Source: a virus
IMG/VR virus record: IMGVR_UViG_3300035670_012130
Span: 42,126 to 106,125 of that record
Direction: 5' to 3' (one strand)
DNA length: 64,000 nucleotides
The notes beneath the pieces are model-generated. The model made no database searches. It had not been told where the DNA came from and saw only the letters and a list, made by a program, of their open reading frames with translations. Made by a program: the position numbers and the translations under genes. Shown here piece by piece: positions 2,135 through 42,598 of the stretch. How positions within the stretch are numbered: position 1 is the stretch's first letter; each line of letters starts with the position of its first letter.

Positions 2135-2140
2135 TATAAT
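2135..2140 (+). promoter_or_regulatory. -10 element TATAAT six bases before the ATG (leaderless-type promoter)
   Basis: TATAAT-gtaaat-ATG(2147); no Shine-Dalgarno and no clear -35. Confidence 0.6.
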
Positions 2141-2146
2141 GTAAAT

Positions 2147-2803
2147 ATGTCTAGATTTGATACAGATTTAATTTTCAAGATTGATGAAAAATGGTTTTGG
2201 CGTAAAGATGATTACAATTTGAAGACCTACAATGGCCTTTCAAGTGAGACAGATCTACTCAAAGTTGTTCAACCCTATCTCAAAGGTAAAAAAGTCGTAG
2301 TTCAAGCTGGTGGAAATTGTGGTATGCAAGTTGTTAAATTTGCAGAATTTTTTGATACAGTTTACACTTTTGAACCTGATCCTATTAATTTTCATTGTTT
2401 AGTTAACAATTTGCCATATGATAATGTAATAAAATTCCAGTGTTGTCTGGGCGATTCTCATAAAATGGTTTCAATGACTACTTTGCCCAATGAAATAGGT
2501 GGTTTTTATGTCAATGAAAATTTGGGTACAACTCCTACACTTAGAGTTGATGATTTGAATTTAACTTACTGTGATTTTTTACAGCTTGATGTTGAGGGTT
2601 ATCAACTTTATGCACTTAAAGGTGCTATAAACACAATCAAGAAATTCCATCCAGTTATTAGTGTTGAATTTGATTGGGCTTTTAGATATAATCACAGCAC
2701 ATCTGATATTAGAAATTTTTTAGCAAGCTTAGGCTACGAAAAAGTCGAGTCTTACACAACTGATCATATTTATATTTATAAAAATCTTTCATTTAGTTTA
2801 TGA
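2147..2803 (+). CDS. FkbM-family SAM-dependent methyltransferase
   Basis: VVQAGGNCG motif I, VYTFEPDP, DFLQLDVEGY, ISVEF. Confidence 0.88.
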   Translation: MSRFDTDLIFKIDEKWFWRKDDYNLKTYNGLSSETDLLKVVQPYLKGKKVVVQAGGNCGMQVVKFAEFFDTVYTFEPDPINFHCLVNNLPYDNVIKFQCCLGDSHKMVSMTTLPNEIGGFYVNENLGTTPTLRVDDLNLTYCDFLQLDVEGYQLYALKGAINTIKKFHPVISVEFDWAFRYNHSTSDIRNFLASLGYEKVESYTTDHIYIYKNLSFSL

Positions 2804-3696
2804 AAATATTAATTACAGGTGCTGGTGGTTTTTTAGGATCAAATATTTGCAATTTGCTATCTAAAAAGCATGAAATTTTAGCTATATCTAGAAATTTTGA
2901 AAAACTAAATAGAGAAAGTAATATAATCTGTCATAAATTAGATATGGCAGATTATAATCTTTTAAAAGAACAAGTGCAAAATTTTATTCCAGAAGTAGTA
3001 ATTCATTGCGCATGGATGGGCGGAAATTCTTCTAGAGACATTAATGAACTGTGGCAAGCAGATAACATCATTTACAGCAATGAACTTCTTAAGTTTTGCT
3101 CATCTCTAGGGATTAGACATTTTATAGGATTTGGATCTTCTGCTGAGTATGGAAATCATTTATGCAAACTAAATGAACTCACAGTTTGTAAACCTACAAC
3201 CATGTACGGTATTACTAAGAATTCATTTAGACACATAGCAGAGAATTATTGTGAATCTAATAATATCAATTTCAGTTGGGTAAGACCAGTTTTTACTTAT
3301 GGTCCAAGAGATGTTGAGACAAGACTAATTCCTAAAGCTATTATATCTTTTTTGAAAAACCAAGATCTTGTATTGAATAAATGTTCAGCCGTAGTAGATT
3401 ATTTATTTGTTGAAGATTTTTGTAAAGCCATACAATGCATTGTTGAACAAGAAATAATTGGAGATTTTACCATATCTTCTGATGATGAAATTAATATAAA
3501 AAAATTAGTTGAAATGATTTATGAAAAAATTAATTCTAAATCTAATTTAATTTTTGATGAAAGTAAACCTGATTACAGCCATCAATATGTTTGTGGTTCA
3601 TCAGAAAAATTAAAATCTTTGTCTGATTGGCGCCCGCTGATTTCTTTAGAGAATGGTTTAGATAAAACCATTTCCTACTTTGAAAAGTTCGTATAA
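2800..3696 (+). CDS. NAD-dependent epimerase/dehydratase (nucleotide-sugar reductase/epimerase-like)
   Basis: ILITGAGGFLG, GSSAEYG, YGITK, YGP, DYLFVED; ATGA overlap with the upstream stop. Confidence 0.9.
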   Translation: MKILITGAGGFLGSNICNLLSKKHEILAISRNFEKLNRESNIICHKLDMADYNLLKEQVQNFIPEVVIHCAWMGGNSSRDINELWQADNIIYSNELLKFCSSLGIRHFIGFGSSAEYGNHLCKLNELTVCKPTTMYGITKNSFRHIAENYCESNNINFSWVRPVFTYGPRDVETRLIPKAIISFLKNQDLVLNKCSAVVDYLFVEDFCKAIQCIVEQEIIGDFTISSDDEINIKKLVEMIYEKINSKSNLIFDESKPDYSHQYVCGSSEKLKSLSDWRPLISLENGLDKTISYFEKFV

Positions 3697-3697
3697 T
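3692..3697 (+). promoter_or_regulatory. -10 element TATAAT six bases before the ATG
   Basis: TATAAT-attttt-ATG(3704). Confidence 0.55.
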
Positions 3698-3703
3698 ATT
3701 TTT

Positions 3704-4513
3704 ATGAATAATCTTTTGCTAAATTTTCTAGATGGTAATCGCATACTCGAATCAATTGATGCAGATATATACCTTGCATCATTATCAAAACACAAAACAT
3801 TTAAAAAACTTGTATGTGTTTACAATGTTGATTCCGAGCAAATCAAAAAACTTGAGAAGTATTATGATTATGTAATACCAGTTGAAAAAGGATTAACACC
3901 AATAAACTTTTGCTATTTAGCTTATTATAATTGGCTTTGTGAAAATGGCAAAGATTTCAAGTATGTAATGCATTGCGATATGCGTGATGTTGTAATTCAA
4001 AAAGATCCATTTGAATTTATGGAAAATCATCCAGATAAAGAACTATTTTTAGTTTGTGAAGGAATGAAAATTAAAGAGAATGATTGCAACAAAATGTGGC
4101 ATGACTGGGTTTTAAATACAATAATTTACAATAAAGAAACCTACGATGATTCTTATGTTTTGAATGGAGGAACATATGGTGGGAAAACAAATGCTTTTCT
4201 AAATTACTGTACATTGATACTCACAGCAATGAATAGAAAGTTCCATTATATTATTCCAGATCAAGCTATGTTGGGTTATTTATATAGACAATTAAGTCAA
4301 AATCCAAATGTTATGCTAACTCATCCTATGACAGATACTTTTTGTGCAACTGGCGAGGCAATAAAAAGAGATAACGTTGATGTTTATTTTGACGGTACAA
4401 ATGTCTGCAATCAATTAGGGGAAAAGTATTGTTTATTCCATCAATGGGATAGAACTGAGGTGGCTGAACTGTTAAGAAATAAGTTTAAAAATACTTTGTC
4501 ATTCAGCCTTTAA
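3704..4513 (+). CDS. Putative GT-A-fold glycosyltransferase-like protein (ATG 3704 preferred over TTG 3680)
   Basis: HCDMRDVVIQKDPF acidic motif, LNGGTYGG, DQAMLG, HQWDR are typical of GT-A-like proteins; sugar-cluster context. Confidence 0.65.
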   Translation: MNNLLLNFLDGNRILESIDADIYLASLSKHKTFKKLVCVYNVDSEQIKKLEKYYDYVIPVEKGLTPINFCYLAYYNWLCENGKDFKYVMHCDMRDVVIQKDPFEFMENHPDKELFLVCEGMKIKENDCNKMWHDWVLNTIIYNKETYDDSYVLNGGTYGGKTNAFLNYCTLILTAMNRKFHYIIPDQAMLGYLYRQLSQNPNVMLTHPMTDTFCATGEAIKRDNVDVYFDGTNVCNQLGEKYCLFHQWDRTEVAELLRNKFKNTLSFSL

Positions 4514-5097
4514 CCTAATTCTCGTTCTATATCAATATCAAGATCTGCAGCTGTTTCAGGTTTAGCTTCATTTTTAGTAGCTAAAATAAGTTGAATAGTT
4601 TCAAACTCTTTCATACTCAAGTTAGAAAATTCATCTTTACTCATAGAAACTAAACCTCGTGTCATATAGTCTATTTCAACAACTAGTGGTGGCACGGGGT
4701 AAGTTTCTGTATCATTTGGGTTGTAATATTTTTTTGTCGCAACATAATAAAAGTTAGCTTCATCAGCATTCAAATATAGATAATTCTGATATTCAACCCA
4801 CAACTTTTCTACAATCTGATAGTCTAGCTTTTCTAATAATGAGATTTCGAATTCAGGCATATAATCTATGTTAGTACTTGTGTCATACGCTCTTAATATT
4901 GCTAAATTTAAAATCTCTCTTTTTTCAAATTCAGAATTTTGATAAACTATATTATCTTTTTTTCTAAATGATTTGGCATCTATCAACAAGCCTTCTTTCC
5001 AAGTTATTTCTCTAACTATAAACTTTACAGTATCTATCGTGATGATATGAGTTCTGTTTGATTTAATTTTATCGTAAAATTCAATAAATTCTTTCAT
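4510..5097 (-). CDS. Putative tail assembly chaperone
   Basis: Small acidic protein with FIVREITWKE N-terminal motif and a C-terminal SKDEFSNLSMKEF segment; follows a tube-like gene. Confidence 0.5.
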   Translation of the reverse strand: MKEFIEFYDKIKSNRTHIITIDTVKFIVREITWKEGLLIDAKSFRKKDNIVYQNSEFEKREILNLAILRAYDTSTNIDYMPEFEISLLEKLDYQIVEKLWVEYQNYLYLNADEANFYYVATKKYYNPNDTETYPVPPLVVEIDYMTRGLVSMSKDEFSNLSMKEFETIQLILATKNEAKPETAADLDIDIERELG

Positions 5098-6338
5098 TAT
5101 AAAAATTCTGATACTCTAGTATTTGATAAACCATTAAAAGCTGTAAATTCTGTCAATCTTGCAGTAAAATTATATTCAATAAAATATCCAGAACCAGGAC
5201 TAATTGTTATTGTAGGTTGTTGCCAATCTACATTTTTCATACTGTAGAAAAATACACTTCCAAAGTACAAGGTCAAAGCAGATGCATTTGTTTGAATAAA
5301 TCCATAATTTTGAGGACTAAATAGTTTTAATGATCCAGTAACTCTTCTATTGCTTAATGATGCAAATCTTGGTCCAGCAATATCATAAAATTCGTACAAA
5401 TTATTTCCAAATGAGTAACCAGGATAGGTGAACGTAAAGTCTATAGATTGTTGAATTGACAAAGACATGTTGACGATTTTATGCACTGGCATACTATTTG
5501 AATTGTAGGAATTTTGAACAGCTTTGGCAAAATCTTTAAAAGCATTATTTCCTGTAAATAAGCCTGGATAAAAGGCGCAATCAGAAAGATTTATTGCTCT
5601 ATACTTGTCTTGAAAATTATTTGATTCATCAGTATTTAGTTGATTATCCAATTCGTTTATTGTCTTCATTTTTATATAATTGTTATTTAAAAATGGTCTA
5701 TAAACAGTAATATTATCTGGAGATATGACAGATCTACCTCCGACTAACGAGCATGAAATTTCTACATCACCAAGTTGATTTAAGCCATCTACGCTTATTT
5801 GAAAATTACTTACAAAAGCAGGCCCAAAAGATTTGTGTGTTGGAATACTTGAGCAAAAAAGTAACGGATAAAGCGGTATATAAGAAGCTCTATACATTAT
5901 AATTTCTGCAGAATATTGTTGATTTACATTAGTAGATAATATTGGGTTAAAAGAAAAGTTTCCTGAATATTGATAATTTGTAAATGTTGGATGATTTAAT
6001 GCAGCTAGACCTGAAAAATTTTGAATTGGTTGATATACATTGTCGCCAGCATTATCAGTGAAATTAGAACAATATAATGGTTTATATTCGTTAGAAAATC
6101 TTTTAGTAAAATAAAACCCTTGTGAAGCTCGATTTGACATATTTGCGCTTAGCAAATATAAATCCCATAAATGAGATCTTGAACCAGTGGTGTTTTTGGC
6201 AACTCTGTATCCACCAAATGATTTTAACTGTTGAGTATATAAACCTGTCGATGAAAAAGGAGCCAGTTCGCAAACATATATATTATGTCCTGATGCTGGG
6301 TAAACTCCATTTATGACATTGTTTATAATATCTGGCAT
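5097..6338 (-). CDS. Putative tail tube-like protein (copy 2)
   Basis: Beta-rich; VSNFQISVD, VNMSLSIQQSI, RRVTGSLKL parallel the motifs of the 6725-8197 protein. Confidence 0.5.
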   Translation of the reverse strand: MPDIINNVINGVYPASGHNIYVCELAPFSSTGLYTQQLKSFGGYRVAKNTTGSRSHLWDLYLLSANMSNRASQGFYFTKRFSNEYKPLYCSNFTDNAGDNVYQPIQNFSGLAALNHPTFTNYQYSGNFSFNPILSTNVNQQYSAEIIMYRASYIPLYPLLFCSSIPTHKSFGPAFVSNFQISVDGLNQLGDVEISCSLVGGRSVISPDNITVYRPFLNNNYIKMKTINELDNQLNTDESNNFQDKYRAINLSDCAFYPGLFTGNNAFKDFAKAVQNSYNSNSMPVHKIVNMSLSIQQSIDFTFTYPGYSFGNNLYEFYDIAGPRFASLSNRRVTGSLKLFSPQNYGFIQTNASALTLYFGSVFFYSMKNVDWQQPTITISPGSGYFIEYNFTARLTEFTAFNGLSNTRVSEFL

Positions 6339-6725
6339 TTATTTTCCGCCTGTCATTTCCAACCATTTTTTTGATAAGGCTTTCACTAATTCGTATCTAA
6401 TCATATTTACATTATGGGGATCTGGATAATAAGTTTCTACATTTTCCCCTTCTATAATCTTAATTACAGAAAAGAAATTTGTAATGATGTTTTTGCAAAG
6501 CACTGATGTTCGCAATAAAGGATTACCAGTTACAGAATTGATAATTGTAGCTTCTTCTATAATATTCGACATATCGGAAAAGTTTCTTCCTTTGACATCA
6601 CAAGAAATCAAACATTTTCCGTTCGGATCAATCTTATAACAAAGTATTTCACCATCTTCGTTTTTAATGATGTTACAATTTAATTTTAATTCAAATCTTT
6701 TTCCAGCGTCTACAAAAATACTCAT
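6339..6725 (-). CDS. Hypothetical protein, possible tail assembly chaperone
   Basis: 128 aa, sits directly after a tube-like gene; position-based call only. Confidence 0.35.
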   Translation of the reverse strand: MSIFVDAGKRFELKLNCNIIKNEDGEILCYKIDPNGKCLISCDVKGRNFSDMSNIIEEATIINSVTGNPLLRTSVLCKNIITNFFSVIKIIEGENVETYYPDPHNVNMIRYELVKALSKKWLEMTGGK

Positions 6726-8197
6726 TAATAAATTCCTGTTGATTTCAATACTGGGTCAAATGTATAATTCTGAGTAGCAACTGAAAAATTTACTTTATTT
6801 TTTTGGTATTCCATTCTAGAGTGTTCTTGAGAATCAGTTGACCATACAACTTCAGGTAGTTCTAACTTTATTGGCCCCATATCAAAAGTTATACCGTCAT
6901 TATTGATGCTACTTGGTCCAGACAGAAATTCAACCATCGCCCAAGGTTTAATAGGACCTGTGTATGTAAGTGACCCTGATATTTTACGTCCTTCTGAATA
7001 GTACCCATATGGTAAAGAATTTTTAAAGAAGTTTTGTTTTGAATCACTACTTTTTGAATTTAATGTAAAAATAGGTTTCAAATTATTTTCTATACTTATA
7101 TCCATCTCAGTGACATATATACTATCTAATTTTGATTGTTGAAATCCTCTGAATAACTTTGAGTCAATCATGGTTCCAAGACCAAACAACCCGTATTCTG
7201 GAGCACTTTTATAAACTCTTGTATTGAAACCATTTAATATATAACTTGGTTTTTTCTTAAAATAACTTTCAACGATTGAAGTAAAATTATTATATAGTTG
7301 AACTTGATATGTTCGGTCAACATTCAAAACTTTCAAGTCAATGTAAGCTATTATTTGTTCTCCAGGCTTAAAATTAATAGCAAACTTATCAACAAGACAA
7401 CCACTTAATAATCCTTGTTTCAATGTAAATAACGAAAATGATGCTTCTCTGCCAGTAGATTGAGGATAAGCTGAAATATATGATGTATCTCTATTAAAAG
7501 AAGTATTTATTCCAGCCCCTATGGTAAGTAATCTATTTGTTTTATCAATACCAGTTATTTCGATTAAGTCATAATATGAATTATTGTCAGATTTAATTTT
7601 TGCTTCAAATGGTAAATCTAAACCCATAAATTCAGCTATATTATCAATATACAACTGCGTTGATCCAACTCCTATAACTGAGGAGTTGTCTGTAGTAAAT
7701 CTTCCTATAAATGAAGTTGGTGAACCCTTGAATGCTTGAATACAATAATCAAAAAAAGCAGCAAGAGAAAAATCTAAATATCCCCAACTATCTACTTTAA
7801 AAGGATAGGTAAAACTTACATTATATTCTTTGGGGCCTAATTGAAATGTATTAGGGTTTGCTCCTTCACCAGCATATCTCTGACCAGCATCTGCTTCTTG
7901 CGCTCCACGTATATTAAAGTTGTCAATTGAAAAAAGATAATTTGAATTTATATTACTGAAAGATAAATTAAAATCTGGATCTTCAGAATACTCTCTGGAC
8001 AAAACAAACAAATCATAATAACCTGTTTCAAAAGCTGGAGCGTATAATTGCGAACTAAAGTTATTGTATGCTTCTTTATATAAATACTGGTTCGGAACAG
8101 ATTCTGAGCTTCCAATACTAGAGGCTAATATTGTTTGATCAACAGCAAAAGAATTAACATTTGATTTTATTGAACTTGCACGAATACTTTTTCTCAT
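6725..8197 (-). CDS. Putative tail tube-like protein (copy 1; ATG 8197 preferred over 8221)
   Basis: GCLVDKFAINFKPGE, EMDISIENNLKP, EGRKISGSL are tube-protein-like motifs; carries a small inserted beta domain. Confidence 0.6.
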   Translation of the reverse strand: MRKSIRASSIKSNVNSFAVDQTILASSIGSSESVPNQYLYKEAYNNFSSQLYAPAFETGYYDLFVLSREYSEDPDFNLSFSNINSNYLFSIDNFNIRGAQEADAGQRYAGEGANPNTFQLGPKEYNVSFTYPFKVDSWGYLDFSLAAFFDYCIQAFKGSPTSFIGRFTTDNSSVIGVGSTQLYIDNIAEFMGLDLPFEAKIKSDNNSYYDLIEITGIDKTNRLLTIGAGINTSFNRDTSYISAYPQSTGREASFSLFTLKQGLLSGCLVDKFAINFKPGEQIIAYIDLKVLNVDRTYQVQLYNNFTSIVESYFKKKPSYILNGFNTRVYKSAPEYGLFGLGTMIDSKLFRGFQQSKLDSIYVTEMDISIENNLKPIFTLNSKSSDSKQNFFKNSLPYGYYSEGRKISGSLTYTGPIKPWAMVEFLSGPSSINNDGITFDMGPIKLELPEVVWSTDSQEHSRMEYQKNKVNFSVATQNYTFDPVLKSTGIY

Positions 8198-8204
8198 ATA
8201 AAAC

Positions 8205-10655
8205 CTATGGCGTAGTTTCAATAGTTATAAGATCATAAATATCCCATAAAATTGGACCGTTATTAATTCTTGTTAAGTTTGTACCTGGAGTGACATAAGC
8301 ATCAATGACTCTATCAAATAACTGTAAATCATTTCCTAAGGCGAATCTTTGATTTCTAGAAGTTCCTTTTGGCACTGTAGTCGTTAATGTTGTAGGTTCT
8401 CCATTTTCACCATTTTGTGCGATTACAGTTACTACCAAATCATTCTTTATAGTTTGATCGTCAGTTGTGGCAATTCCAGTGGTTGATCCGTTAAAAACTA
8501 CATTAGAAGTAGATAAATCTTCAACATAAGGGACATATGCTGAAATTCTACTAGGCTGTAAAGCTATTCTGTTGGTTAACTTTATTCCACGTCTTAATAT
8601 TTCGCCTGATATATTGCCATCATCAAGATAACCTCTAAATTTATAAAAAGCGGTTCCACCTGTTCCAGTCCAAGATGTTCCATTATTGATGGATGTTAAT
8701 CCTTGACCAGAACTGCCTGAAATTATTCTGGTATATAAACTTGTGGACCCAAGACCTGTAGTGAAATCTGATGGCTTGTCTATTACTAGCCAGTAGGATG
8801 AACCTTGTTCTAAGTTAGCTCCTGTTCTAAATTTTATAGTATATTCGTTAGTGCCTTGTTGTATATCAGAATTTCTTATAACTGATGCGCTAGTGAGCAT
8901 TCCATTAGGAGTTGGTGTTGAGCCTGTTGCTGAAAATATTGATATAGATATGCCTGTTGTACCTGAGCCTGTTGTTTGACCTCCAGCAGTATACTTAAAT
9001 TTAAGTGTTACTCCTCCGATGAAACAATCTTCATTAGGTGTAATTTTAAAAGCTGTAAGTCCATTATTTAATATCAAATCAGTATCATCTGTAACTGTTG
9101 TCATCGTGTTGTAAGATGGATATTGTATTTCGTTTATATTAGTTAATTTTCTTTCAATTATATCACTACTTAGTTGCGGTTTTTTGTAAACATTATAAAA
9201 AAGTGGATTTGTAATTCCTGCGCCAGTCCAAGTTAACTCTACAAGATAATTGTTTGATGTAAAATTAGATGATACTAAATTACTGTAAACTGGTATACTT
9301 TCTACATACTCATCTGTAGATATATTGTAAACTATTGTCACTCCATAAATTTGAGTGCCCGATGAAAGCGAAGATATATAGTTAGAACAAGGTATGACTT
9401 GATTCGTTAATCCTGTGGCAGCTACTGAATTATCACTTCCTATAGCTGCATTGTAAGTTATCAAGTCTCCTCTAAAAATTGCAAATGTATGTTGAGTATC
9501 AGAACCTATTGTTTGATAGTAAGCTTTTGCGAAATTATATGGTAGCTCAAATCTTTCAAGTCCACTAAATGATGTGCCTTTAGAATAAAATTCAGTTTTT
9601 CTGAAAGGTTGTGTTGCTAAAAGCTCTCTATTTGTCAATCCTGAATTTGAAGATTCCGTGCTCAAGTATCTGTAAACTGCAGAAACAGTATTTCTTATGT
9701 AATCATTTGATTTATATGTTGATAATGCGTCATTTGCTTCATTACAACTTTGAATTATCAAGCTTTTATCAGAAGAATCTCCTAGTATTTGATACGTTGA
9801 TATATCAGTTGGCATATCTACAATCGTTCTGGTCAATCCCGTACCAGAATCTACTACTACTGGGTCTTCAGGGTTTTTAACCATTACTTTACTGATTGGC
9901 AACCAGCTTTGTGGTAATGGAGGAAAATAATCAAATGTATTGACATTTTCTGAACTTTCTAAAACTGGAAAACCAGTTATATATTTTACTCTTGGTTGAA
10001 AAAGAAATGTTACTGGATTGTCTAGATAGTATGTAGCTGGTAATGTTCCAAAAGAAGATCCATTGTAATATGATGGATCTACCACTAAACCTGTGAGATC
10101 ATCAGTAACATTTGAAAAAGTAATTAAGTAATTTCCTACAAAAGCTTGTAGAGGAAATCCAAGATTTACAGCAATTGATGCATCTTTTACTAGCAATATT
10201 GAAGTTCCAGCTAAGCAAGTGTCGCTAACTGTAGTTGCCCAAGTTTGAGTAGCTTTTTGTGCTTCTGAAATAGGCAATCCTAAAGTAACGCCATATTTAT
10301 AACTTGCTCCAAAGCCTCCAGTAGAATAGTTTTTTGACCATTCTTTCCTTAGGGGTATTTTTTGTGGCTGTAAACTAATTACTGATCCATTGTAAGCTAA
10401 TTGTCCACTTCTTACAGTTACATAATAAGGGTCATATGTTATATCATAAGTTGTTTCGCAGCCTAATGGAGCTGTTTCTAAGATTCCAAAATATGGCAAT
10501 CCTGTATTAGCCATAGATAGCAAGTTATTAATTTCAAAAATAGAAGAGCCAGGAGTTTCCACGTCTCCAATGCCATAACTTAAAGCATCGTAAATATTGC
10601 CCACTGTTTTTGTTAATTCAAGAACTATTTCTTCTACTTTTGATGAAATTGCCAT
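8205..10655 (-). CDS. Virion structural protein (tail/baseplate-associated)
   Basis: 816 aa, S/T/G-rich; VTVRSGQLAYNG N-terminal motif and an AFKITP...YWLVI beta-sandwich domain shared with other genes here. Confidence 0.5.
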   Translation of the reverse strand: MAISSKVEEIVLELTKTVGNIYDALSYGIGDVETPGSSIFEINNLLSMANTGLPYFGILETAPLGCETTYDITYDPYYVTVRSGQLAYNGSVISLQPQKIPLRKEWSKNYSTGGFGASYKYGVTLGLPISEAQKATQTWATTVSDTCLAGTSILLVKDASIAVNLGFPLQAFVGNYLITFSNVTDDLTGLVVDPSYYNGSSFGTLPATYYLDNPVTFLFQPRVKYITGFPVLESSENVNTFDYFPPLPQSWLPISKVMVKNPEDPVVVDSGTGLTRTIVDMPTDISTYQILGDSSDKSLIIQSCNEANDALSTYKSNDYIRNTVSAVYRYLSTESSNSGLTNRELLATQPFRKTEFYSKGTSFSGLERFELPYNFAKAYYQTIGSDTQHTFAIFRGDLITYNAAIGSDNSVAATGLTNQVIPCSNYISSLSSGTQIYGVTIVYNISTDEYVESIPVYSNLVSSNFTSNNYLVELTWTGAGITNPLFYNVYKKPQLSSDIIERKLTNINEIQYPSYNTMTTVTDDTDLILNNGLTAFKITPNEDCFIGGVTLKFKYTAGGQTTGSGTTGISISIFSATGSTPTPNGMLTSASVIRNSDIQQGTNEYTIKFRTGANLEQGSSYWLVIDKPSDFTTGLGSTSLYTRIISGSSGQGLTSINNGTSWTGTGGTAFYKFRGYLDDGNISGEILRRGIKLTNRIALQPSRISAYVPYVEDLSTSNVVFNGSTTGIATTDDQTIKNDLVVTVIAQNGENGEPTTLTTTVPKGTSRNQRFALGNDLQLFDRVIDAYVTPGTNLTRINNGPILWDIYDLITIETTP

Positions 10656-10656
10656 T

Positions 10657-11511
10657 TTATATATTTATACTCAACTCTGTTGTTAGATAAGATAAAAGTC
10701 TGGTTGGTAATAAAATGCCCGTGCTTTGCCAATATGATGTAAAATCAGGCTCCCAAGTTGAACTACCAACCCAATTTGAAATAATATCTTTGGTTAAATT
10801 TTTCTGTGTATTATATTGTTCTGAAATTAATGCATAATTTCTTATGATTGATGAAACTACTATTCTTGAAATATTCTCTTCTGTGTAGCCAAAATAACCT
10901 CTTGGCAATCTTTCGTCTATCAATTTGAAAAACACTCTTGAGTTTTTAATTGTCTGATCATAGTAAGAAACATCTGCAATAAATTTATATAATTCTAAAT
11001 CATAAGTTTTATCTGTTGTGAAAGATAATTCTTGTGAAGTTCTAATAATTTCCTCAGCAGTATCGATATCTATGTCCTTACTGATAATCAAAGGGCTGCC
11101 ATTTGGGTCATTTATGGGTCTAGCTAATGAAAAGATTAGTTCTTCTCCATCAACACTGTCCGAGGATAAAAATACTTTTCCAAATATGTATCCATCAGAC
11201 ATTGTGTCAATATTTCCCAATACTTCTTGGACTGTATATCCTTGTTCATTTCCGGTGGGAAGCTCAACATTAGTAGTTGATAAAACTGTTTTAACTAATC
11301 CTTTCCCAAAACTCAAAACATCAAGAACCATATTGTAATTTTGAGATTTTATTGCTGATAGTCCGTAAAGCAATTGCAAATTACGTTCTACAGTATTATA
11401 TGACAAAGCATATTCTTGTGAAGCTAATGCCATATCAACTGTTTTTTCTGTTTGATCAAGAGCAAGCACTAAATTATTCATTGTGACTGCTGACGCATAA
11501 TTCATTGCCAT
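10657..11511 (-). CDS. Hypothetical protein (structural module)
   Basis: 284-aa ORF closely coupled to both neighbours; no recognised motif. Confidence 0.6.
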   Translation of the reverse strand: MAMNYASAVTMNNLVLALDQTEKTVDMALASQEYALSYNTVERNLQLLYGLSAIKSQNYNMVLDVLSFGKGLVKTVLSTTNVELPTGNEQGYTVQEVLGNIDTMSDGYIFGKVFLSSDSVDGEELIFSLARPINDPNGSPLIISKDIDIDTAEEIIRTSQELSFTTDKTYDLELYKFIADVSYYDQTIKNSRVFFKLIDERLPRGYFGYTEENISRIVVSSIIRNYALISEQYNTQKNLTKDIISNWVGSSTWEPDFTSYWQSTGILLPTRLLSYLTTELSINI

Positions 11512-14500
11512 TATTTGTTCCTAATCACAATCTTGTCAGTAATGGGGAAACCATAATATTGATCATTGATTTCTTCCAGAGATTTACCAACAACTAAGTA
11601 TGTTATATTTTCAATTTTTTCACTATCAATAAGTATTGGGCTTACTGATACATCTTGATAGAAAGAATTATCAACTTCTTGCCATGATGACGTACCAGTC
11701 TTTCTCCATTCTAATTTCAAATTGTGTAAATTTTGATAATTGTTAAATTGTAATTCTAATGTTATTGGCTGTGAACTTCCTGTAGCAACGTAAGATGTTG
11801 TGAATGAAGTAGAAGAAGTATTATTCCAATCGCTTATGTATGGATTATCTTCATTATTTATATAAAATTTTACACCACCATTTGTAGTCACTCTAAAGTC
11901 AAAAGTTGCGCCTAATGAGGAAAGGGCTGTAAAATCTCCGACTGAATACCCATTGAAATAATTTGTCTGTCCTAATCCGCCAAAATTATCGAAATCAAGA
12001 TTATGATGAGCTGATGTTAAATCACTCATTTCATTGCTGTCTAATTCGAGATAATTCCAGGAAGATTTCTTATACCATTGAGTAATCCAAGTGGGCGATT
12101 TATCAAGCTTTATATAAGTAGTTTGAAGCTGATTGTCAACATTATATTTAAGATACAAGTGGATATCATTTGCTCTCTTGATAAATCTATTAGTGTTATC
12201 ACCAAAGTAATGAGTATTAGCTGAACCTGACAAATTATTACTTAGATAAACTTTATATAAGCCATTTGTTGAATCATATGTCAAATTAGTTATGGCTGTA
12301 CCGCTTGATAAAACGCTTGAAGTAACTGCTATACCAACCATAACAGAAGGGTCAAAGTTTTCTTCTGGTATATAAAGTAAATTTGTTCCAGAAGTTCCAG
12401 TAGCTCCAACTGCAACCACTCTAGATACAAATGATCTAGGATAAATATAGAGTTGAGATGGAGTAAATAAATTTTGATTATTTACTGTCCAAAATTCATC
12501 TAAATAGTAATCAGTATCGTTTGATCTGGTTTTATTAGGTGCTGGCATAATAAGAGAAGAATAATTAAAATCTCTATTGAATCCAGCATAAATTTCACTA
12601 TCTAACCCGAAGAATTCTACAAATGGTGTGCCTGTAGAAGCAGTCCAAGAATATCCATCGTAAAAAGCCATATTGGATGCAGTTGGAGTGGAGGACTCTT
12701 GTATCTGCAATCTTAGGTCATATTTGATTACATAACTTTGATTATCACTTGTTCCAGCGCTTCCAGATAATGTCATCACGGAAGAAGAACCTATAGAAGC
12801 AATCTCATACCAAGTAGAAATATCACCAGATAAAGTACTACCAAATCCTATAGAAGCATACTTTTGATATTTATTGAAATCAGCCATTGTATCTGTAGAT
12901 GGATTGTAAAGTCCACTTACTGCTGTTCCACTTACACTAACTAATCCAAGTGTTTTAGCATCATAATTAGGTGGATTTGTATTTGATTCAAACACAATCC
13001 AGTATGTTCTGTCTTTTGTAAGTGAATAGTTCACATAAAAATAAACATCATCTAGAACGTTCTTTATAGTTGTATAGAAAACTTTAGAACCAGTAATGAG
13101 CTTTGCATTTGGAAGGCTATTGTAATTGTCCCAAATACTTATTTGAATATAAGCATCAGGATTATTGCAAATAGCTAAACTTTGTAATCTAATTTTTAAA
13201 GATTTTATATCTTGATATTCGTTTGGTGTAATTTTAAAAGCAAATTTATTGTAATTTAAACTCTTATAATTACCCTTAGTAGTTTGGTTTATATTTGTAG
13301 CATCAACTATTGATATTTGTTGTTTGTAGATGTTTTCAAGACTATTGATTGAAGAGTCTGAAGTTGAATATCCGGCAATTGAAACAACGAAAGAATCAGA
13401 CCTTAAATCTAAAATATTTTGCGCTGTGAAAATTTTGTTATCTTTTTCAGCTCCAACTACTTCATCGTAATTAGAAATCCAATGTTTACTTCTGCTGTAT
13501 GCATAATTAGAAACAGTCATACCCATTTCTTTGATAGTGGAGAATGTGTTTGGAAATTGACTAGAATCTGGAGTATAGAAAGATTTAGTTAATTCATAAT
13601 CACTAACACTGTCTTGAATTTCCGCTTCTGTGATATTAGGATTTGTTGATTTTAAGTTAGTTATAAAGTCTGATTTAGTTTGTTTTGTAGAATCTGTAGG
13701 CTGAACTTGCTTTGTTAATATTGCTCTGCTTTCGCCCATTTGCATATTAGGAATGATTGCAGCACTTCCATAAAGTCTGTATTCTTCCATTGAGTTGAAA
13801 GTACCAGGCGCATAATTATCTCTTTCTGTTTGTGTACCTTGCTTAAAATATCCAGAAGTTGTTAAATTTTTGTTTTGTCTGTTCAAATATTCGTCATCTG
13901 TAATTAAGAATTTTGAAGAATTTAACTTTATATTTTTAATTAATTTATCACTATTAGCATTTTGAAACACAATTGAAAAAGCATAATCTTTTGTCAATTT
14001 TGTTCCTGTTGTTTCTTGATCTAATAAATCTGGAATGTTTGACACTTCTTGGTAAAACTCAAATTCTGTATCACTTTCAAAATTGATGTCATTAAGTTTC
14101 ATTCCATTTTCATCATATTTAAAAACGATTTTTGTTGGAGGAGTTGATAGCCAAGAAATCATTGCATTTGCGCCAGATTCTTCAACTTCAATATTGATAG
14201 GTTCAGTTTCTAATGGACTATTTTTAATACCATATGTTTGACTATCTACTGCAGCTTTATAATTTTCCTCAAGAGTCAAATAAGTATCTGTAATGATTGA
14301 AAGCACTTGACCATATAAAATTGTGCCATCAGAGCTATAAAGATAATCGCCCTCAGTTATTTCTTTTGTGAACTTAGAAGAACTACCAATTACAACATTA
14401 TTACCTGAAGATATAGTAATTTTTCCAGAACCTTTTGTTGTTTGATAATTAGATTTTAATGCTGGAGCTATTGGATATTTTAATAAATTATGTAGTAGCT

Positions 14501-16214
14501 TTGTTTTCTTGAAGCTATTGTTCTTGATATCTGCATAGCTACTTGTTCCATATGATTTGAAATTTGAGAATGGAGCAACTAAATCTGCACCTAATTTATC
14601 GTAAATATTTTTGTATTCATCGCTTCTGGTAAATGTAGTCATTGAAATAACATCTTGCAAGGTGTCATTGATCAAATTACTATCACCTATTGGAGGAACA
14701 GCAAAATTATCCGCACTTCTTTTTATGTAAACAATAGATGCGCTGTTCAAATTGTATGTTGTATTTGATTTACTCTTTATTGTCCCAGAAGTTTTGAATG
14801 ATGGATAAGAAAGAATCATCTTAGCAACAATGTCATAATCCTTGTCGATTGTTGGATAATTCTTGAAATCTTCCCAATCTACGGGAACAGATTCTTGAGG
14901 CATAGCTTTTCCAAAAAATAAATAAAAGTCTATGTCCCCGTTTTCATATTGATTCCCAGAAATAATGTTCTTAGTAGCTAATAAAACAGGCAGATACTCA
15001 AAAGAACTCAAAGACACATAGTTTGCTAAAGAATTTGTATCTCCGTATGCACTAAATGTTTCTGGATACAAATATCTAAATGGCTCTACTGTTGTTATGT
15101 AATCACCATCATAATATTTCTGATTAGTCTTGCTTCTTGAAAAAAGATAAATATTAGTATCATTTACACCTGTTTTTTCAAATGCAATATAATTTTGAAT
15201 ATCTTTTTGTAAATAGGTCTTTCTTGGATAAATATTCCAATCAGATGACAAATTACTTGAGTTGAAAGTGATTGCAGTTCCAGAAGTATATGTTGGGTAA
15301 GATGTGAAGAAATTTGTATCGTGAGTATCCCAATAAAAGGCTAAATGATACCAATAATCTGCAGTCCAAGATGCTGGTGTTTTTACTTTAAATAAATAAT
15401 GATCTTTGATTGTGTCTGTTGTTGAACCAGTAGAAGATACTTCAGATACATCATAAGCAAGGTAAGTAAGAGCTAATCCTGCCATACTTCCTCCAAGTGA
15501 GAAAGTGGATCCTATACCTTGTGTTTTTAAGTAAATGTGAGAAGCAATACCAAGATCTTTTGGTGTGTTTGAAAGTGGATTTATAAATTGTGCGCCTTCA
15601 AAATAAGACTTTGGAATTAGGATATGCGCTTCGTTGTTTGATACTGTTCCTGTATTTTTGACAGAAATCCATCTTGAAGAATTAAATAAATTAACTCTTT
15701 GATATAAACTACCATCCCATCTTACAGGATAGTCGTAGTTTGTTCTTTCCGATCCATCCCCAGGCTCAGAATTGATATTATAAATTATGTAAGATGTATT
15801 AGCATTACCAGCAGCATTGTAAGGAGGGACGAAATATTGCCAAGCATTGTAATCCCAAACGCCCCAACCTTCAGTCGATGGTGGGTTGTAATATTGAGGA
15901 GTCCAACCACCAGTATTGGCAAAACTGGCAACTTTTTGATCTACTATATATTGACCACCTTGAAAACCAAATGAAATATTCTCTATAGCATCAAAAGTTT
16001 GATAAGGCTTGGTTGTTAATCCTTGCGGTGTTTTTCCAGCTAAATCATAATCGTGAAAAATTGTTGAGCCTCTAAACTTGACAGCTATTCTTTCATAATC
16101 CAAATAATAACCGTGTTTCAGAGACAAATCACCAACCAAATCTTTGTAGGCATATTTAGCTTTGCCGATTTGATTGATGATAAATTCGAGACCTTTTTTG
16201 GATACGAGACTCAT
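11511..16214 (-). CDS. Large virion protein with C-terminal PA14-like domain
   Basis: 1567 aa; FDFRVTTNGGVKFYINN...DW...LKLEW is PA14-like; fibre-like GKITISSGNNVVIGSSSKF; FAFKITP...YWIVF domain. Confidence 0.6.
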   Translation of the reverse strand: MSLVSKKGLEFIINQIGKAKYAYKDLVGDLSLKHGYYLDYERIAVKFRGSTIFHDYDLAGKTPQGLTTKPYQTFDAIENISFGFQGGQYIVDQKVASFANTGGWTPQYYNPPSTEGWGVWDYNAWQYFVPPYNAAGNANTSYIIYNINSEPGDGSERTNYDYPVRWDGSLYQRVNLFNSSRWISVKNTGTVSNNEAHILIPKSYFEGAQFINPLSNTPKDLGIASHIYLKTQGIGSTFSLGGSMAGLALTYLAYDVSEVSSTGSTTDTIKDHYLFKVKTPASWTADYWYHLAFYWDTHDTNFFTSYPTYTSGTAITFNSSNLSSDWNIYPRKTYLQKDIQNYIAFEKTGVNDTNIYLFSRSKTNQKYYDGDYITTVEPFRYLYPETFSAYGDTNSLANYVSLSSFEYLPVLLATKNIISGNQYENGDIDFYLFFGKAMPQESVPVDWEDFKNYPTIDKDYDIVAKMILSYPSFKTSGTIKSKSNTTYNLNSASIVYIKRSADNFAVPPIGDSNLINDTLQDVISMTTFTRSDEYKNIYDKLGADLVAPFSNFKSYGTSSYADIKNNSFKKTKLLHNLLKYPIAPALKSNYQTTKGSGKITISSGNNVVIGSSSKFTKEITEGDYLYSSDGTILYGQVLSIITDTYLTLEENYKAAVDSQTYGIKNSPLETEPINIEVEESGANAMISWLSTPPTKIVFKYDENGMKLNDINFESDTEFEFYQEVSNIPDLLDQETTGTKLTKDYAFSIVFQNANSDKLIKNIKLNSSKFLITDDEYLNRQNKNLTTSGYFKQGTQTERDNYAPGTFNSMEEYRLYGSAAIIPNMQMGESRAILTKQVQPTDSTKQTKSDFITNLKSTNPNITEAEIQDSVSDYELTKSFYTPDSSQFPNTFSTIKEMGMTVSNYAYSRSKHWISNYDEVVGAEKDNKIFTAQNILDLRSDSFVVSIAGYSTSDSSINSLENIYKQQISIVDATNINQTTKGNYKSLNYNKFAFKITPNEYQDIKSLKIRLQSLAICNNPDAYIQISIWDNYNSLPNAKLITGSKVFYTTIKNVLDDVYFYVNYSLTKDRTYWIVFESNTNPPNYDAKTLGLVSVSGTAVSGLYNPSTDTMADFNKYQKYASIGFGSTLSGDISTWYEIASIGSSSVMTLSGSAGTSDNQSYVIKYDLRLQIQESSTPTASNMAFYDGYSWTASTGTPFVEFFGLDSEIYAGFNRDFNYSSLIMPAPNKTRSNDTDYYLDEFWTVNNQNLFTPSQLYIYPRSFVSRVVAVGATGTSGTNLLYIPEENFDPSVMVGIAVTSSVLSSGTAITNLTYDSTNGLYKVYLSNNLSGSANTHYFGDNTNRFIKRANDIHLYLKYNVDNQLQTTYIKLDKSPTWITQWYKKSSWNYLELDSNEMSDLTSAHHNLDFDNFGGLGQTNYFNGYSVGDFTALSSLGATFDFRVTTNGGVKFYINNEDNPYISDWNNTSSTSFTTSYVATGSSQPITLELQFNNYQNLHNLKLEWRKTGTSSWQEVDNSFYQDVSVSPILIDSEKIENITYLVVGKSLEEINDQYYGFPITDKIVIRNK

Positions 16215-39715: not shown

Positions 39716-42598
39716 ATGAACCTTTCCCCAGACCCAAGACAACTAAAAACAAAAGTCACTTTGAGTATTATGAATGCTCCTGAAAGTGGATTTTTTTCTG
39801 GGGAATATACTGCTAGTACTGCTACAAAGTCACAAGACAACTTAAATGTTTTGAATTATGATTTTGAACCAACTTATACTTATGCAGATGGCACAACAGA
39901 ACCAAAATATAGTAGCAGATTAAAGGTAATTTCTTCTTTACAAAATGCTAGAATTCCAGAGATCAATACAGCTATAAGTGCATCATCTTGTACATTTGCA
40001 TTTGGTGCTATTGTTCCCGGAGAAGTGGATCCTGTGCTAAATAAGTTGAAAGGTCCAGCAGAAGGATATAACCCAAATTTTGTTGATAGTCCAATTCAAG
40101 GTAGTGTGCAGTCACAACCTGAAAAATTTGATGATTTTACTCAACACGTACCTAAAATTCCATTTACTAATAATGGAAATGTATTAACTACTTACAATAT
40201 TTGGCATTTAGTTGATGGTGCCAGGGATGCATATAAATATATAGGACCAGCTATCTCTGGAGTAAATACTGGCACTCTAAGAACTGTTAAAGATCCTGTC
40301 AATGGTGCGCAAGTTGAAGTTACTTCTGAGAAAACGAATACAACAATCAAAAGAATTTTTCCTACTTCTTATGACGCTGTTTATCAAAATGATGCTGTAA
40401 TTTACAATCCTGATGGTACTTCAGAGCCTATAAAAGCAAGAGGAAACTATGGCAATAATGGTTTTCATATTAACTTTTCAGCAAGCAATATGCAACAAAA
40501 TTCTTCAGCCATAAAAATCGCAATAAGACCACAAGTTGCAAATAATAATTATATCAATGATTTTTTTATTGAATTTAAAATAGATAGCAAGCCTGTTTTA
40601 AAAATATTTGATCCATATAGCCAGTCTTACATAGTTCAAACAGATTTGATAGCTCCTGTTTTAGACAAGACTAATATGAATTCTTATGACGTGTATGTAC
40701 ATTTTGTTGGGCCAAATCTGTTAGTTGGTTTTAGTCCAGACATTACAAGATGGAATACAGTTATCAATTTAAGTGGCAGAGAAGTGTTTTGCCCACCTTT
40801 AACTGATATTTTTATATCCTTGTCAAATACTAATGTGAAGTTCAGATATTCTGCAATAATTTTTAATAATTTCAATAATAATCAGCCCAAAAATTCAACT
40901 AAAAATTATATAACAGCAGAATTTAAATATTCAAAGAAAAAAATTCCAACAATCTCAACATTTCTAGAAAAAGTTCAAGATTCTTTCGAAAAATCATCAT
41001 ATAGAATAAATGGCTTTCCACAAAACACTGGATATAATTCTGCCAACCCATTAGATAAAAATATTTCATATTTTGCAGATTTGCGCTTAAATCAAGCCCA
41101 ATTTGCAAAAATAACTGAATATACAACACCACCTCTGACAAGTGCAGATCCTGATAAACAAACCCTTTATTTCAAAATTAGATATAATTGTACGATTGAA
41201 GGTCCAGCATTTTTACAAATTGAAATTCCACATCCAGGAGTATTAGCAACGGTATTTCCTGATTTGGGAAGTGGCAGTGCAAACGCAGGTGATTATAAAT
41301 TTATCAATCCTCAGCTGAATCAATTGTTTTACGATGTGGGAGACATAACATCTTGGGTCGAAAGTTGGTCTGTAAACTGCACAGCAGAGCTTTCCAATTT
41401 ATCAAAAATTAGTAAAACTGCAAACATTGTCTTAAAAAATATTGATTCTTTAGAAGGTCAAAAGTTTATCAACGCAATTGAAAATAACTTGTTGTGTGTA
41501 TCTATAGACGCAGGTTATGTACAGGGTAATTTGTATCCATACTTTCAAGGTTTTATCACAAGCACATCATATTCTAGGAAAGGTAACGATAGTACATTTA
41601 CCTTAACTTGCCAAGATATAGCATCTTTTGTTTTAGAGAATTTATATTTTGATAAAAATATGATGATAGCTGGTATGAGACATGACTTAGCAATTGATTC
41701 TATAATGGCTACTTCAGGATTTTGGTCATACTATATAAGAAATAATTCTGATTTACAAAATGGAGGTTCAATTTATGGAATTGATTTAAGATTGAATAGT
41801 AATTCAACAAATAATCAAGATCTTATAAAATTAAATCCTCTTGATAAGATTTATGAAAAATTAGGTAAGCTTTTAGAAAGATTGAATAATCCTTATTCTC
41901 TTCCAACATTCAGATGGGCGGAAAGATATGGGTTTAAATTAGAATGTAGAAACAACTATATAGATAATGATTTGAAATTTACTGGATTAAATGCAGCTGG
42001 CACAGCTTACATTTTTAACAGTAACGCATCAAACACAAATAATTATATAAATAATTTTCAATCAGATATACACGGCTTACTTGTTGATGATTACACAATT
42101 AAAACAGATGTTAAAGGCCTTGCTGCAGGAGTTAGAGTTTTTGGCACAGCTATGACTGGTTTTTTAGCTGACGAAAGATATTCTCCAGGATCTGTATCTA
42201 TTCAAAATTTACCAATCCAATCTCAAATAGATTTATTGGGATATTTGCAAAATGCTCCATTCAATTCAGCACAAGCTCCTTATGTTGGGTTCAAGAAATA
42301 TTTGATGTGGTCTATGCAAAGAAATGAAATTCCTGATCAGCAAGTGCTAAAGAGAGTTACAGATAGTATAGAGTTAGTTTCTAAAACACCAATAAGTTCA
42401 ATTAATTTCCAGTGCTATGTTGCTAAGCCCCTAAGTTTTCACGGTAAATTTTTGATTAATGTTTTCCAAGGGCAGACAGTTAATTCAACTGATCAATATG
42501 TATATACAAATGTTGATTACAGTTATAATAAATCCAACAATCTTATCACAGCAAGCGTTCAGGGAACTAACATGCCAATATCATTAGGAGGAGTATAA
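39716..42598 (+). CDS. Putative baseplate hub/tail-tip protein
   Basis: VESWSVN...ANIVLKN...VSIDAGY...YFQGFIT...FTLTCQD is a hub-like beta pattern. Confidence 0.55.
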   Translation: MNLSPDPRQLKTKVTLSIMNAPESGFFSGEYTASTATKSQDNLNVLNYDFEPTYTYADGTTEPKYSSRLKVISSLQNARIPEINTAISASSCTFAFGAIVPGEVDPVLNKLKGPAEGYNPNFVDSPIQGSVQSQPEKFDDFTQHVPKIPFTNNGNVLTTYNIWHLVDGARDAYKYIGPAISGVNTGTLRTVKDPVNGAQVEVTSEKTNTTIKRIFPTSYDAVYQNDAVIYNPDGTSEPIKARGNYGNNGFHINFSASNMQQNSSAIKIAIRPQVANNNYINDFFIEFKIDSKPVLKIFDPYSQSYIVQTDLIAPVLDKTNMNSYDVYVHFVGPNLLVGFSPDITRWNTVINLSGREVFCPPLTDIFISLSNTNVKFRYSAIIFNNFNNNQPKNSTKNYITAEFKYSKKKIPTISTFLEKVQDSFEKSSYRINGFPQNTGYNSANPLDKNISYFADLRLNQAQFAKITEYTTPPLTSADPDKQTLYFKIRYNCTIEGPAFLQIEIPHPGVLATVFPDLGSGSANAGDYKFINPQLNQLFYDVGDITSWVESWSVNCTAELSNLSKISKTANIVLKNIDSLEGQKFINAIENNLLCVSIDAGYVQGNLYPYFQGFITSTSYSRKGNDSTFTLTCQDIASFVLENLYFDKNMMIAGMRHDLAIDSIMATSGFWSYYIRNNSDLQNGGSIYGIDLRLNSNSTNNQDLIKLNPLDKIYEKLGKLLERLNNPYSLPTFRWAERYGFKLECRNNYIDNDLKFTGLNAAGTAYIFNSNASNTNNYINNFQSDIHGLLVDDYTIKTDVKGLAAGVRVFGTAMTGFLADERYSPGSVSIQNLPIQSQIDLLGYLQNAPFNSAQAPYVGFKKYLMWSMQRNEIPDQQVLKRVTDSIELVSKTPISSINFQCYVAKPLSFHGKFLINVFQGQTVNSTDQYVYTNVDYSYNKSNNLITASVQGTNMPISLGGV

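Follow-up and report, generated by a model that had tools for sequence, protein, structure and literature searches.

What is one and the same C-terminal peptide doing on two unrelated enzymes? The question is raised by a stretch of viral DNA of 64,000 nucleotides (the window), which is the right-hand 64 kb of the 106,125-bp IMG/VR virus record IMGVR_UViG_3300035670_012130 (positions 42,126 to 106,125; G+C content 32.7%). In this window an FkbM-family S-adenosyl-L-methionine (SAM) methyltransferase of 218 amino acids (aa) ends in KNLSFSL and a GT-A-like transferase of 269 aa, encoded downstream, ends in KNTLSFSL. A first-pass annotation of the window had pointed out this match and read it as a possible docking tag; its coordinates and peptides proved to be exact, and homologues of both enzymes conserve the tail. 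The carriers are one lineage of uncultured freshwater jumbo phages, whose polymerase is at most ~35% identical to known phage polymerases, and no cultured phage record matched the 269-aa transferase. We lean towards the view that the tail is a portable docking peptide that brings finishing enzymes to one site.

A conserved tail on two unrelated folds

The methyltransferase gene (2147-2803, plus strand) encodes a protein ending in YIYKNLSFSL, with the stop codon at 2801-2803. Its membership in the FkbM family is clear from the PF05050 profile (50.1 bits against a curated cut-off of 22.7, E = 4.5e-13), and the top Protein Data Bank (PDB) match of its AlphaFold model (mean predicted local distance difference test score, pLDDT, 91.8) is 2py6, itself an FkbM methyltransferase. 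The tail K-N-L-S-F-S-L (2780-2800, plus strand) is a seven-residue extension past the last beta-strand (residues 206-211), and this terminal block lacks secondary structure and scores low in pLDDT. The transferase gene (3704-4513, plus strand; 269 aa when counted from the ATG used by homologues) encodes a protein ending in KFKNTLSFSL and stands last in a sugar island. No Pfam family reached its cut-off with this protein. Its AlphaFold model (pLDDT 90.5) has as best Foldseek matches BoGT6a, alpha-1,3-GalT and glycogenin (4cj8, 1o7o, 3u2w; probability 1.0, TM-score ~0.5), and the modeled fold resembles that of retaining GT6/GT8 enzymes. Here the tail N-T-L-S-F-S-L (4490-4510, plus strand) extends seven residues past the last helix (residues 254-262), again without secondary structure and with pLDDT below 50 at residues 267-269.

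Conservation of the tail was followed in the best 120 clusters of transferase homologues, which are 42-91% identical to the 269-aa protein. In 114 of them the motif [L/M]-x-F-x-[I/L]-COOH forms the exact C-terminus; with positions numbered from the end (-1 being the last residue), Phe is found in all 114 tails, Leu or Met at -5 in 112, and Ile or Leu at -1 in 110. Variants of the tail in the lineage include LRFSL, LKFFL and MTFKI. In an alignment of 45 transferase sequences (A2) only 30 columns are invariant, and F267 of the tail is among them, together with D92, D95 and H246-Q-W-D-R-T251 (the invariant D92-x-x-D95 may correspond to the DxD-type metal/donor motif). Among the FkbM homologue clusters listed, 42 end in L-[ST]-F-x-[LI], with Phe and a final Ile or Leu in every one; the bearers comprise nearly all clusters above ~60% identity and one clade at 52-55%. 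A tree of the FkbM proteins, built with the tail columns removed, requires at least three well-supported changes of tail state.

The match is unlikely to be a chance event. When all C-termini of the present 106-kb contig (G000; 79 genes) were scanned for [LMFIV]-x-F-x-[LIFVM]-stop, two genes were found, both of them the tailed enzymes, versus 0.33 expected; the background rate of the motif is ~0.4% of open reading frames (ORFs). By our rough estimate, the probability that any two of the 79 proteins have an identical C-terminal pentapeptide by chance is ~0.004. Four of the five LSFSL codons differ between the two genes, which bears out the earlier statement that the match is one of protein and not of DNA. 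Across the homologues, four codons drawn from the two Leu families encode Leu at -5, codons of either Ser family encode Ser at -2, and both Phe codons are in use; since codons drift across families in this way, selection acts on the peptide rather than on the DNA. Judged from these sequences, the tail is a selected feature of the protein.

Relatives outside the tailed clades indicate that the tail was appended to enzymes that were otherwise complete. Transferase relatives from other phages, at 27-34% identity, retain HQWDRT and the last helix and end six to seven residues sooner, without the tail; remoter FkbM relatives likewise have their C-terminus ~7 residues sooner, right behind the final strand D-x-I-[YF]-x-x. 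Two translationally coupled transferase paralogues (L003:8811-9599 and L003:9596-10309, together G000:C1:38811-40309; 32% and 23% identity) also lack the tail, the former keeping HQWD and the latter having lost this region as well. When 185,579 cellular species genomes were scanned, three distant tail-less relatives were found but no member of the tailed transferase clade. Because the tail-less relatives keep the core, we conclude that a seven-residue extension was added to two unrelated folds inside one phage lineage. The conserved residues lie at -5, -3 and -1 with polar ones in between and in a fixed register to the carboxylate, and this spacing and register argue for a strand-forming peptide that is read with its free end, not for an amphipathic helix. 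Membrane targeting of the MinD/FtsA type, with amphipathic helices of 8-15 residues, was considered and does not fit the strand periodicity or an extension of only seven residues.

As the first-pass annotation had noticed, the soluble nucleotide-sugar enzymes of the contig are without the tail; none of them carries the motif. This is true of the precursor enzymes in all islands of the lineage, where the tail was never present on short-chain dehydrogenases/reductases (SDRs), thiamine diphosphate (ThDP) enzymes, aldolases, dehydroquinate (DHQ)-synthase-like and NeuB-like enzymes or the aminotransferase. The two tailed genes also tend to be found together. In all ten distinct tailed FkbM genes with a readable context, the gene lies zero to one gene upstream of a tailed transferase; of the 78 untailed FkbM genes, 77 are not in such a position. 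At two loci (L140 and L141) another protein takes the place of the transferase, and the FkbM tail, now L-Q-G-N-I, has decayed with loss of its Phe; at two more (L138 and L143) a tail-less FkbM is followed by no tailed transferase. The replacing protein, of 270 aa and unrelated, ends in FIEYWKNIIK and is present in one or two copies (L141:6672-7484 and 9354-10169; L140:4580-5392).

A third family has acquired the same end by a different route. In related loci without the 218-aa FkbM protein there is a 298-aa FkbM-type methyltransferase (L010:5438-6334; homologues P0241-P0265) ending in PLVQFTL, and its 22 closest homologue clusters end in PL[LIV]-x-F-x-[LIFM]-COOH; IMG/VR holds few close members of this family. 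In the bacterial and unrelated-phage homologues the corresponding segment reads PLLEC-x-P and the chain continues. The motif arose here when a Cys became Phe and a strand already present was cut short. Such a case is convergent and weaker than the other two, and it points in the same direction. One copy of the enzyme (L020) has three additional residues, LLEFIFEKN.

Genome-wide scan and possible receptors

Two relatives with near-complete genomes, G001 (358 kb, 411 genes) and G002 (316 kb, 334 genes; CheckV completeness 89% and 88%), allowed the scan to be extended beyond the present contig. In them, 5/411 and 2/334 genes have the strict motif at their end, versus 1.7 and 1.25 expected, and among all C-termini of the two genomes no further sugar enzyme or replisome protein has the tail. 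With no other family clearly tagged in both, the tail is not a genome-wide zip code. The idea of a phage zip code therefore survives in part: the motif is under selection and occurs on unrelated enzymes and on none of the soluble precursor enzymes, but it is not general, as shown by these counts and by the untailed paralogues. Apart from the transferase, a single family has the strict motif in both genomes, a beta-rich protein of 315-320 aa that ends in [FI]-D-F-S-[IL]-COOH and has no Pfam or PHROG match (L218:17966-18928 in G001; L229:2875-3822 in G002).

The replication clamp had been suggested earlier as one of two platforms for the tail. A QLxLxL-type tail would tether both tailed enzymes to the phage clamp, where new DNA would be glycosylated and methylated. 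The lineage does encode a beta clamp, in the present contig at G000:C1:804-1961 (a gp45-type clamp and PolB were searched for in the contig and its relatives and none was found; the beta clamp and DnaE are present instead), and the L-x-F-x-L-COOH spacing fits the hexapeptide beta motifs, of which QLVLGL of Pol IV is one. Like the clamp-binding tails (QL[S/D]LF or QLxLxL; gp43, gp55 and gp33 of T4/RB69), the phage tail is a short hydrophobic C-terminal peptide on unrelated enzymes with L-x-hydrophobic-x-L spacing. Unlike them, it is located on sugar-island enzymes and not on DNA enzymes, and it is without Gln: none of 156 tails has Gln at -6, the first position of the beta motif. The probable clamp clients of the lineage end differently. 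The DnaE Pol III alpha subunit of the relatives ends in LLSDELFD, and a 188-aa sigma factor (Sigma70_r4, E = 1.8e-10), encoded two genes downstream of the clamp gene, ends in LGKDFLFD (DFLFD or DFLLD in orthologues). Because Pol III alpha and the sigma factor share another end and the tails lack Gln, the clamp is disfavoured as the platform, and by its sequence the tail falls outside the beta-clamp motifs. The tailed genes also lie in a nucleotide-sugar island, mostly against virion genes, in neighborhoods without 5-methylcytosine or hydroxymethylase genes. Phage DNA glycosyltransferases have been reported with JGT/TarP-like or T4 BGT-like folds (bioRxiv 10.1101/2023.12.21.572611), and the fold here is GT6/GT8-like. 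The clamp explanation, which we regard as quite improbable, is kept on account of an Ogg-like DNA glycosylase of G001 that ends in QLHFDF.

Two observations made along with the clamp analysis deserve mention. The Ogg-like glycosylase (L211:7183-7857; Ogg-HhH E = 2e-5, below the curated cut-off) has with QLHFDF a good hexapeptide beta-clamp motif, and no orthologue of it was found in G000 or G002. The order of clamp gene, 333-aa gene and sigma factor gene is the same at L001:804-3538 (G000:C1, ~39 kb upstream of the window), at 64302-67036 of G001 and at 112663-115355 of G002. From these C-termini, [D/E]-x-L-[F/L]-D-COOH on polymerase and sigma factor is likely the clamp motif of this lineage, in an arrangement like that of T4 gp43 and gp55, which suggests a T4-like clamp-activated late transcription built on a bacterial-type beta clamp.

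PDZ domains are the other well-known readers of free C-termini, and the tail has the pattern of a class II PDZ ligand, with a hydrophobic Ile or Leu at the last position (110/114 and 42/42) and Phe two residues before it in all tails. It resembles such ligands in its exact C-terminal register, in hydrophobic residues at 0, -2 (and -4) in the numbering that counts the last residue as 0, and in its strand-like periodicity. It differs from PDZ systems in that the PDZ domains PF13180 and PF17820 gave no match above cut-off in five phage records of the lineage (G000, G001, G002, G003 and G005), and a phage-encoded PDZ receptor was accordingly rejected; a PDZ protein of the host, or a receptor of another kind, is conceivable.

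A proposed docking peptide and its rivals

On our preferred reading, that of a docking peptide, both the binding by the tail and its partner are what we infer. The tail as an extended strand would show Leu, Phe and Ile/Leu on one face, and a receptor would read its free carboxylate. Transferase and methyltransferase would in this way be held at one shared site, at which the sugar could be transferred and then methylated without release. The tagged enzymes are those expected to act last, namely the terminal GT-A-like transferase together with any FkbM-type methyltransferase present in the island. As candidates for the receptor we would prefer, in this order, the enzymes themselves or an island complex, the glycosylation target or a virion assembly factor, and a host factor. 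Tail-to-groove or tail-to-tail pairing is conceivable, as the motif reads almost as a palindrome centered on Phe. A virion-assembly platform, the other one named in the first-pass annotation, is possible and fits the gene neighborhood. More specifically, the pentapeptide might be a phage address tag that recruits the transferase and a swappable methyltransferase onto a phage-specific receptor (the virion target, or an assembly factor like the adjacent chaperone-like protein described below), with tailoring enzymes becoming functional on gaining the tag; this version we put forward tentatively and consider doubtful.

Several findings weigh against the docking peptide. At one locus (L134) there is a tailed transferase but the neighboring FkbM protein ends in L-T-S-V-L, with Phe replaced, so the methyltransferase tail is dispensable at least sometimes. 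A phylogenetically corrected test of co-occurrence had only two independent contrasts with known context and was not significant, and for this reason the co-occurrence is not statistically established. Both GT-like paralogues of the same island do without the tail. In the 298-aa family the motif extends a pre-existing last strand, and fold constraints could explain it. Finally, the flexible C-terminus of GT6 retaining GT-A enzymes is a catalytic lid, a precedent by which an intramolecular role is possible for the transferase alone.

That precedent leads to a rival explanation, in which the C-terminus closes over donor and acceptor as in GT6 and, for the same glycan, the tail of the methyltransferase would act as a comparable clamp on the substrate. 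The best structure matches are GT6/GT8 retaining enzymes, including the entry of a C-terminally truncated alpha-1,3-GalT mutant (PDB 2jcj); in the apo model the tail lacks order, as GT6 tails do, and it is preceded by basic residues. But it is missing in the 27-34% relatives and in a paralogue that has all catalytic motifs, from which we conclude that it is not intrinsic to catalysis in the transferase fold and that the tail is no GT6 lid proper. The GT6 lid (alpha-1,3-GalT, GTA/GTB), which belongs to the same general fold and is also disordered, is family-intrinsic and polar or basic, whereas the phage tail is clade-specific, hydrophobic (L-x-F-x-L) and also found on methyltransferases. Furthermore, the FkbM tail leaves a final antiparallel strand that by its topology should point off the SAM site in class I methyltransferases, and active-site chemistry can hardly account for the convergence of three families on one pentapeptide. 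We give the lid a slim chance. Unlikely as well is a peripheral membrane anchor, by which a basic stretch and a hydrophobic end would keep the two proteins at the inner membrane, where they would remodel a lipid-linked glycan of the host (lipopolysaccharide, O-antigen or capsule). An R/K-rich segment does precede the transferase tail (...IRNKFKNTLSFSL) and there is Lys in the FkbM protein, the soluble precursor enzymes are untagged, and basic/aromatic C-termini are used by peripheral glycosyltransferases, LgtC among them. Yet there are only three hydrophobic residues, in the spacing of a strand and not of an amphipathic helix; Phe is invariant, while membrane insertion allows swaps among L, I, F and W; the carboxylate register is exact in 114 of 120 clusters and the GT-like paralogues are untagged; and a flippase, polymerase or other membrane partner was found in no island examined.

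A C-terminal degron, a partly nonpolar end marking both enzymes for host proteases of the ClpXP, FtsH or Lon type and limiting their window of activity, would agree with a tail that is exposed and flexible in the models, and nonpolar C-terminal pentapeptides reportedly make cytoplasmic proteins of E. coli unstable. It is not evident, however, why the finishing enzymes alone should be destabilised. Known degrons, which have small residues at their end (LAA), allow variation, whereas Phe here is invariant, and a protease signal would not predict that the FkbM tail is lost where the tailed transferase is lost; we hold a degron to be very improbable. The explanation without any function, that the match is due to chance or was left behind where a short piece of DNA was duplicated or neighboring cassettes recombined, could appeal to an island made of swappable cassettes and to K-N codons (AAA AAT) that are identical in both tails. 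It is effectively refuted by tail-coding DNA that is just 9/15 identical and by a peptide kept over 42-92% protein identity while its codons drift across families, against a background of ~0.4%.

A docking peptide would have a parallel in glycogenin (GT8), a retaining GT-A enzyme of similar fold with a conserved C-terminal peptide apart from its core, which is said to recruit the next enzyme of the pathway, glycogen synthase, by ~33 helical residues. Unlike that peptide, the phage tag has five to seven residues and is present on both partners. To our knowledge, no common enzyme tag has been described for phage virion- or DNA-glycosylation systems. In the mycobacteriophages Che8, Corndog and Myrna, capsid and tail-tube proteins are glycosylated (Freeman et al. 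2023, cited in PMC12619734). The cassettes of these phages resemble the present island in having glycosyltransferase and O-methyltransferase genes near virion genes and differ from it in their enzyme families. If the tail is a docking peptide, a bait of five to seven residues could fish out the receptor and reveal what the sugar islands decorate (virion, host envelope or DNA), and the target of large strain-variable sugar islands is a question for many aquatic jumbo phages. Modular glycan pathways would then recruit tailoring enzymes by tagging complete folds, a rule that might serve annotation and be sought in further phages. Should the tail prove to be a lid or a membrane anchor, it is an ordinary feature of an enzyme.

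Sugar island, neighboring genes and TATAAT signals

Between the two tailed genes lies a tail-less gene for an extended SDR (NAD-dependent epimerase/reductase; 2800-3696, plus strand; PF01370, E = 2.2e-38), and an SDR of similar kind precedes the tailed transferase in nearly all relatives. Upstream, and partly outside the window, is a nucleotide-sugar island of ~14 kb with SDRs, a DegT-type aminotransferase, ThDP enzymes and the two tail-less transferase paralogues. Downstream, on the opposite strand, an operon (4510-16214 and beyond) encodes large virion-like proteins, none of them with a database match. In 19 of 19 IMG/VR loci the tailed transferase closes a variable sugar island and converges on this operon, with proteins of 195, ~413, 128, ~498, 816 and 284 aa and a giant protein; in three metagenome contigs of the lineage the island adjoins other genes instead.

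The last gene of the virion-like operon (4510-5097, minus strand), encoding the 195-aa protein, adjoins the tailed transferase in all 19 loci. The protein has no Pfam or PHROG match; its language-model neighbors include tail-assembly-chaperone families (0.84-0.86, a lead only), so that it is possibly a tail-assembly chaperone. By its position, it is a candidate partner of the C-terminal tail.

The precursor enzymes vary from island to island. Among four loci (L013, L018, L020 and L022) we noted an HpcH-type aldolase, a DHQ-synthase-like enzyme, acetaldehyde dehydrogenase with an HMGL-like aldolase, ketopantoate hydroxymethyltransferase, a NeuB-like enzyme and ThDP enzymes. This variation suggests that the islands hand strain-specific branched or higher-carbon sugars to one conserved transferase.

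Each tailed gene is preceded by a TATAAT-N6-ATG signal, one before the methyltransferase gene (2135-2149, plus strand; TATAAT at 2135-2140) and one before the transferase gene (3692-3706, plus strand; TATAAT at 3692-3697), the latter overlapping the SDR stop codon. Close relatives conserve (A)GTATAAT-N6-ATG ahead of both genes. The signal had been thought peculiar to these two genes within the visible cluster; its presence there is confirmed, but it is not unique to them, being found at 5/79 genes in the present contig, 23/411 in G001 and 8/334 in G002, the sigma factor gene included. The spacing of TATAAT would put the transcript start at the ATG, as expected for leaderless mRNAs from a -10-only promoter, and this layout of the sequence suggests a leaderless transcription reminiscent of T4 late promoters. 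A further TATAAT signal is located in the 39716 region of the window. From 21850 to 63999 the window is occupied by a run of very large plus-strand ORFs of 952, 1306, 3461, 960, 1221, 1450, 988, 1282 and >1267 aa.

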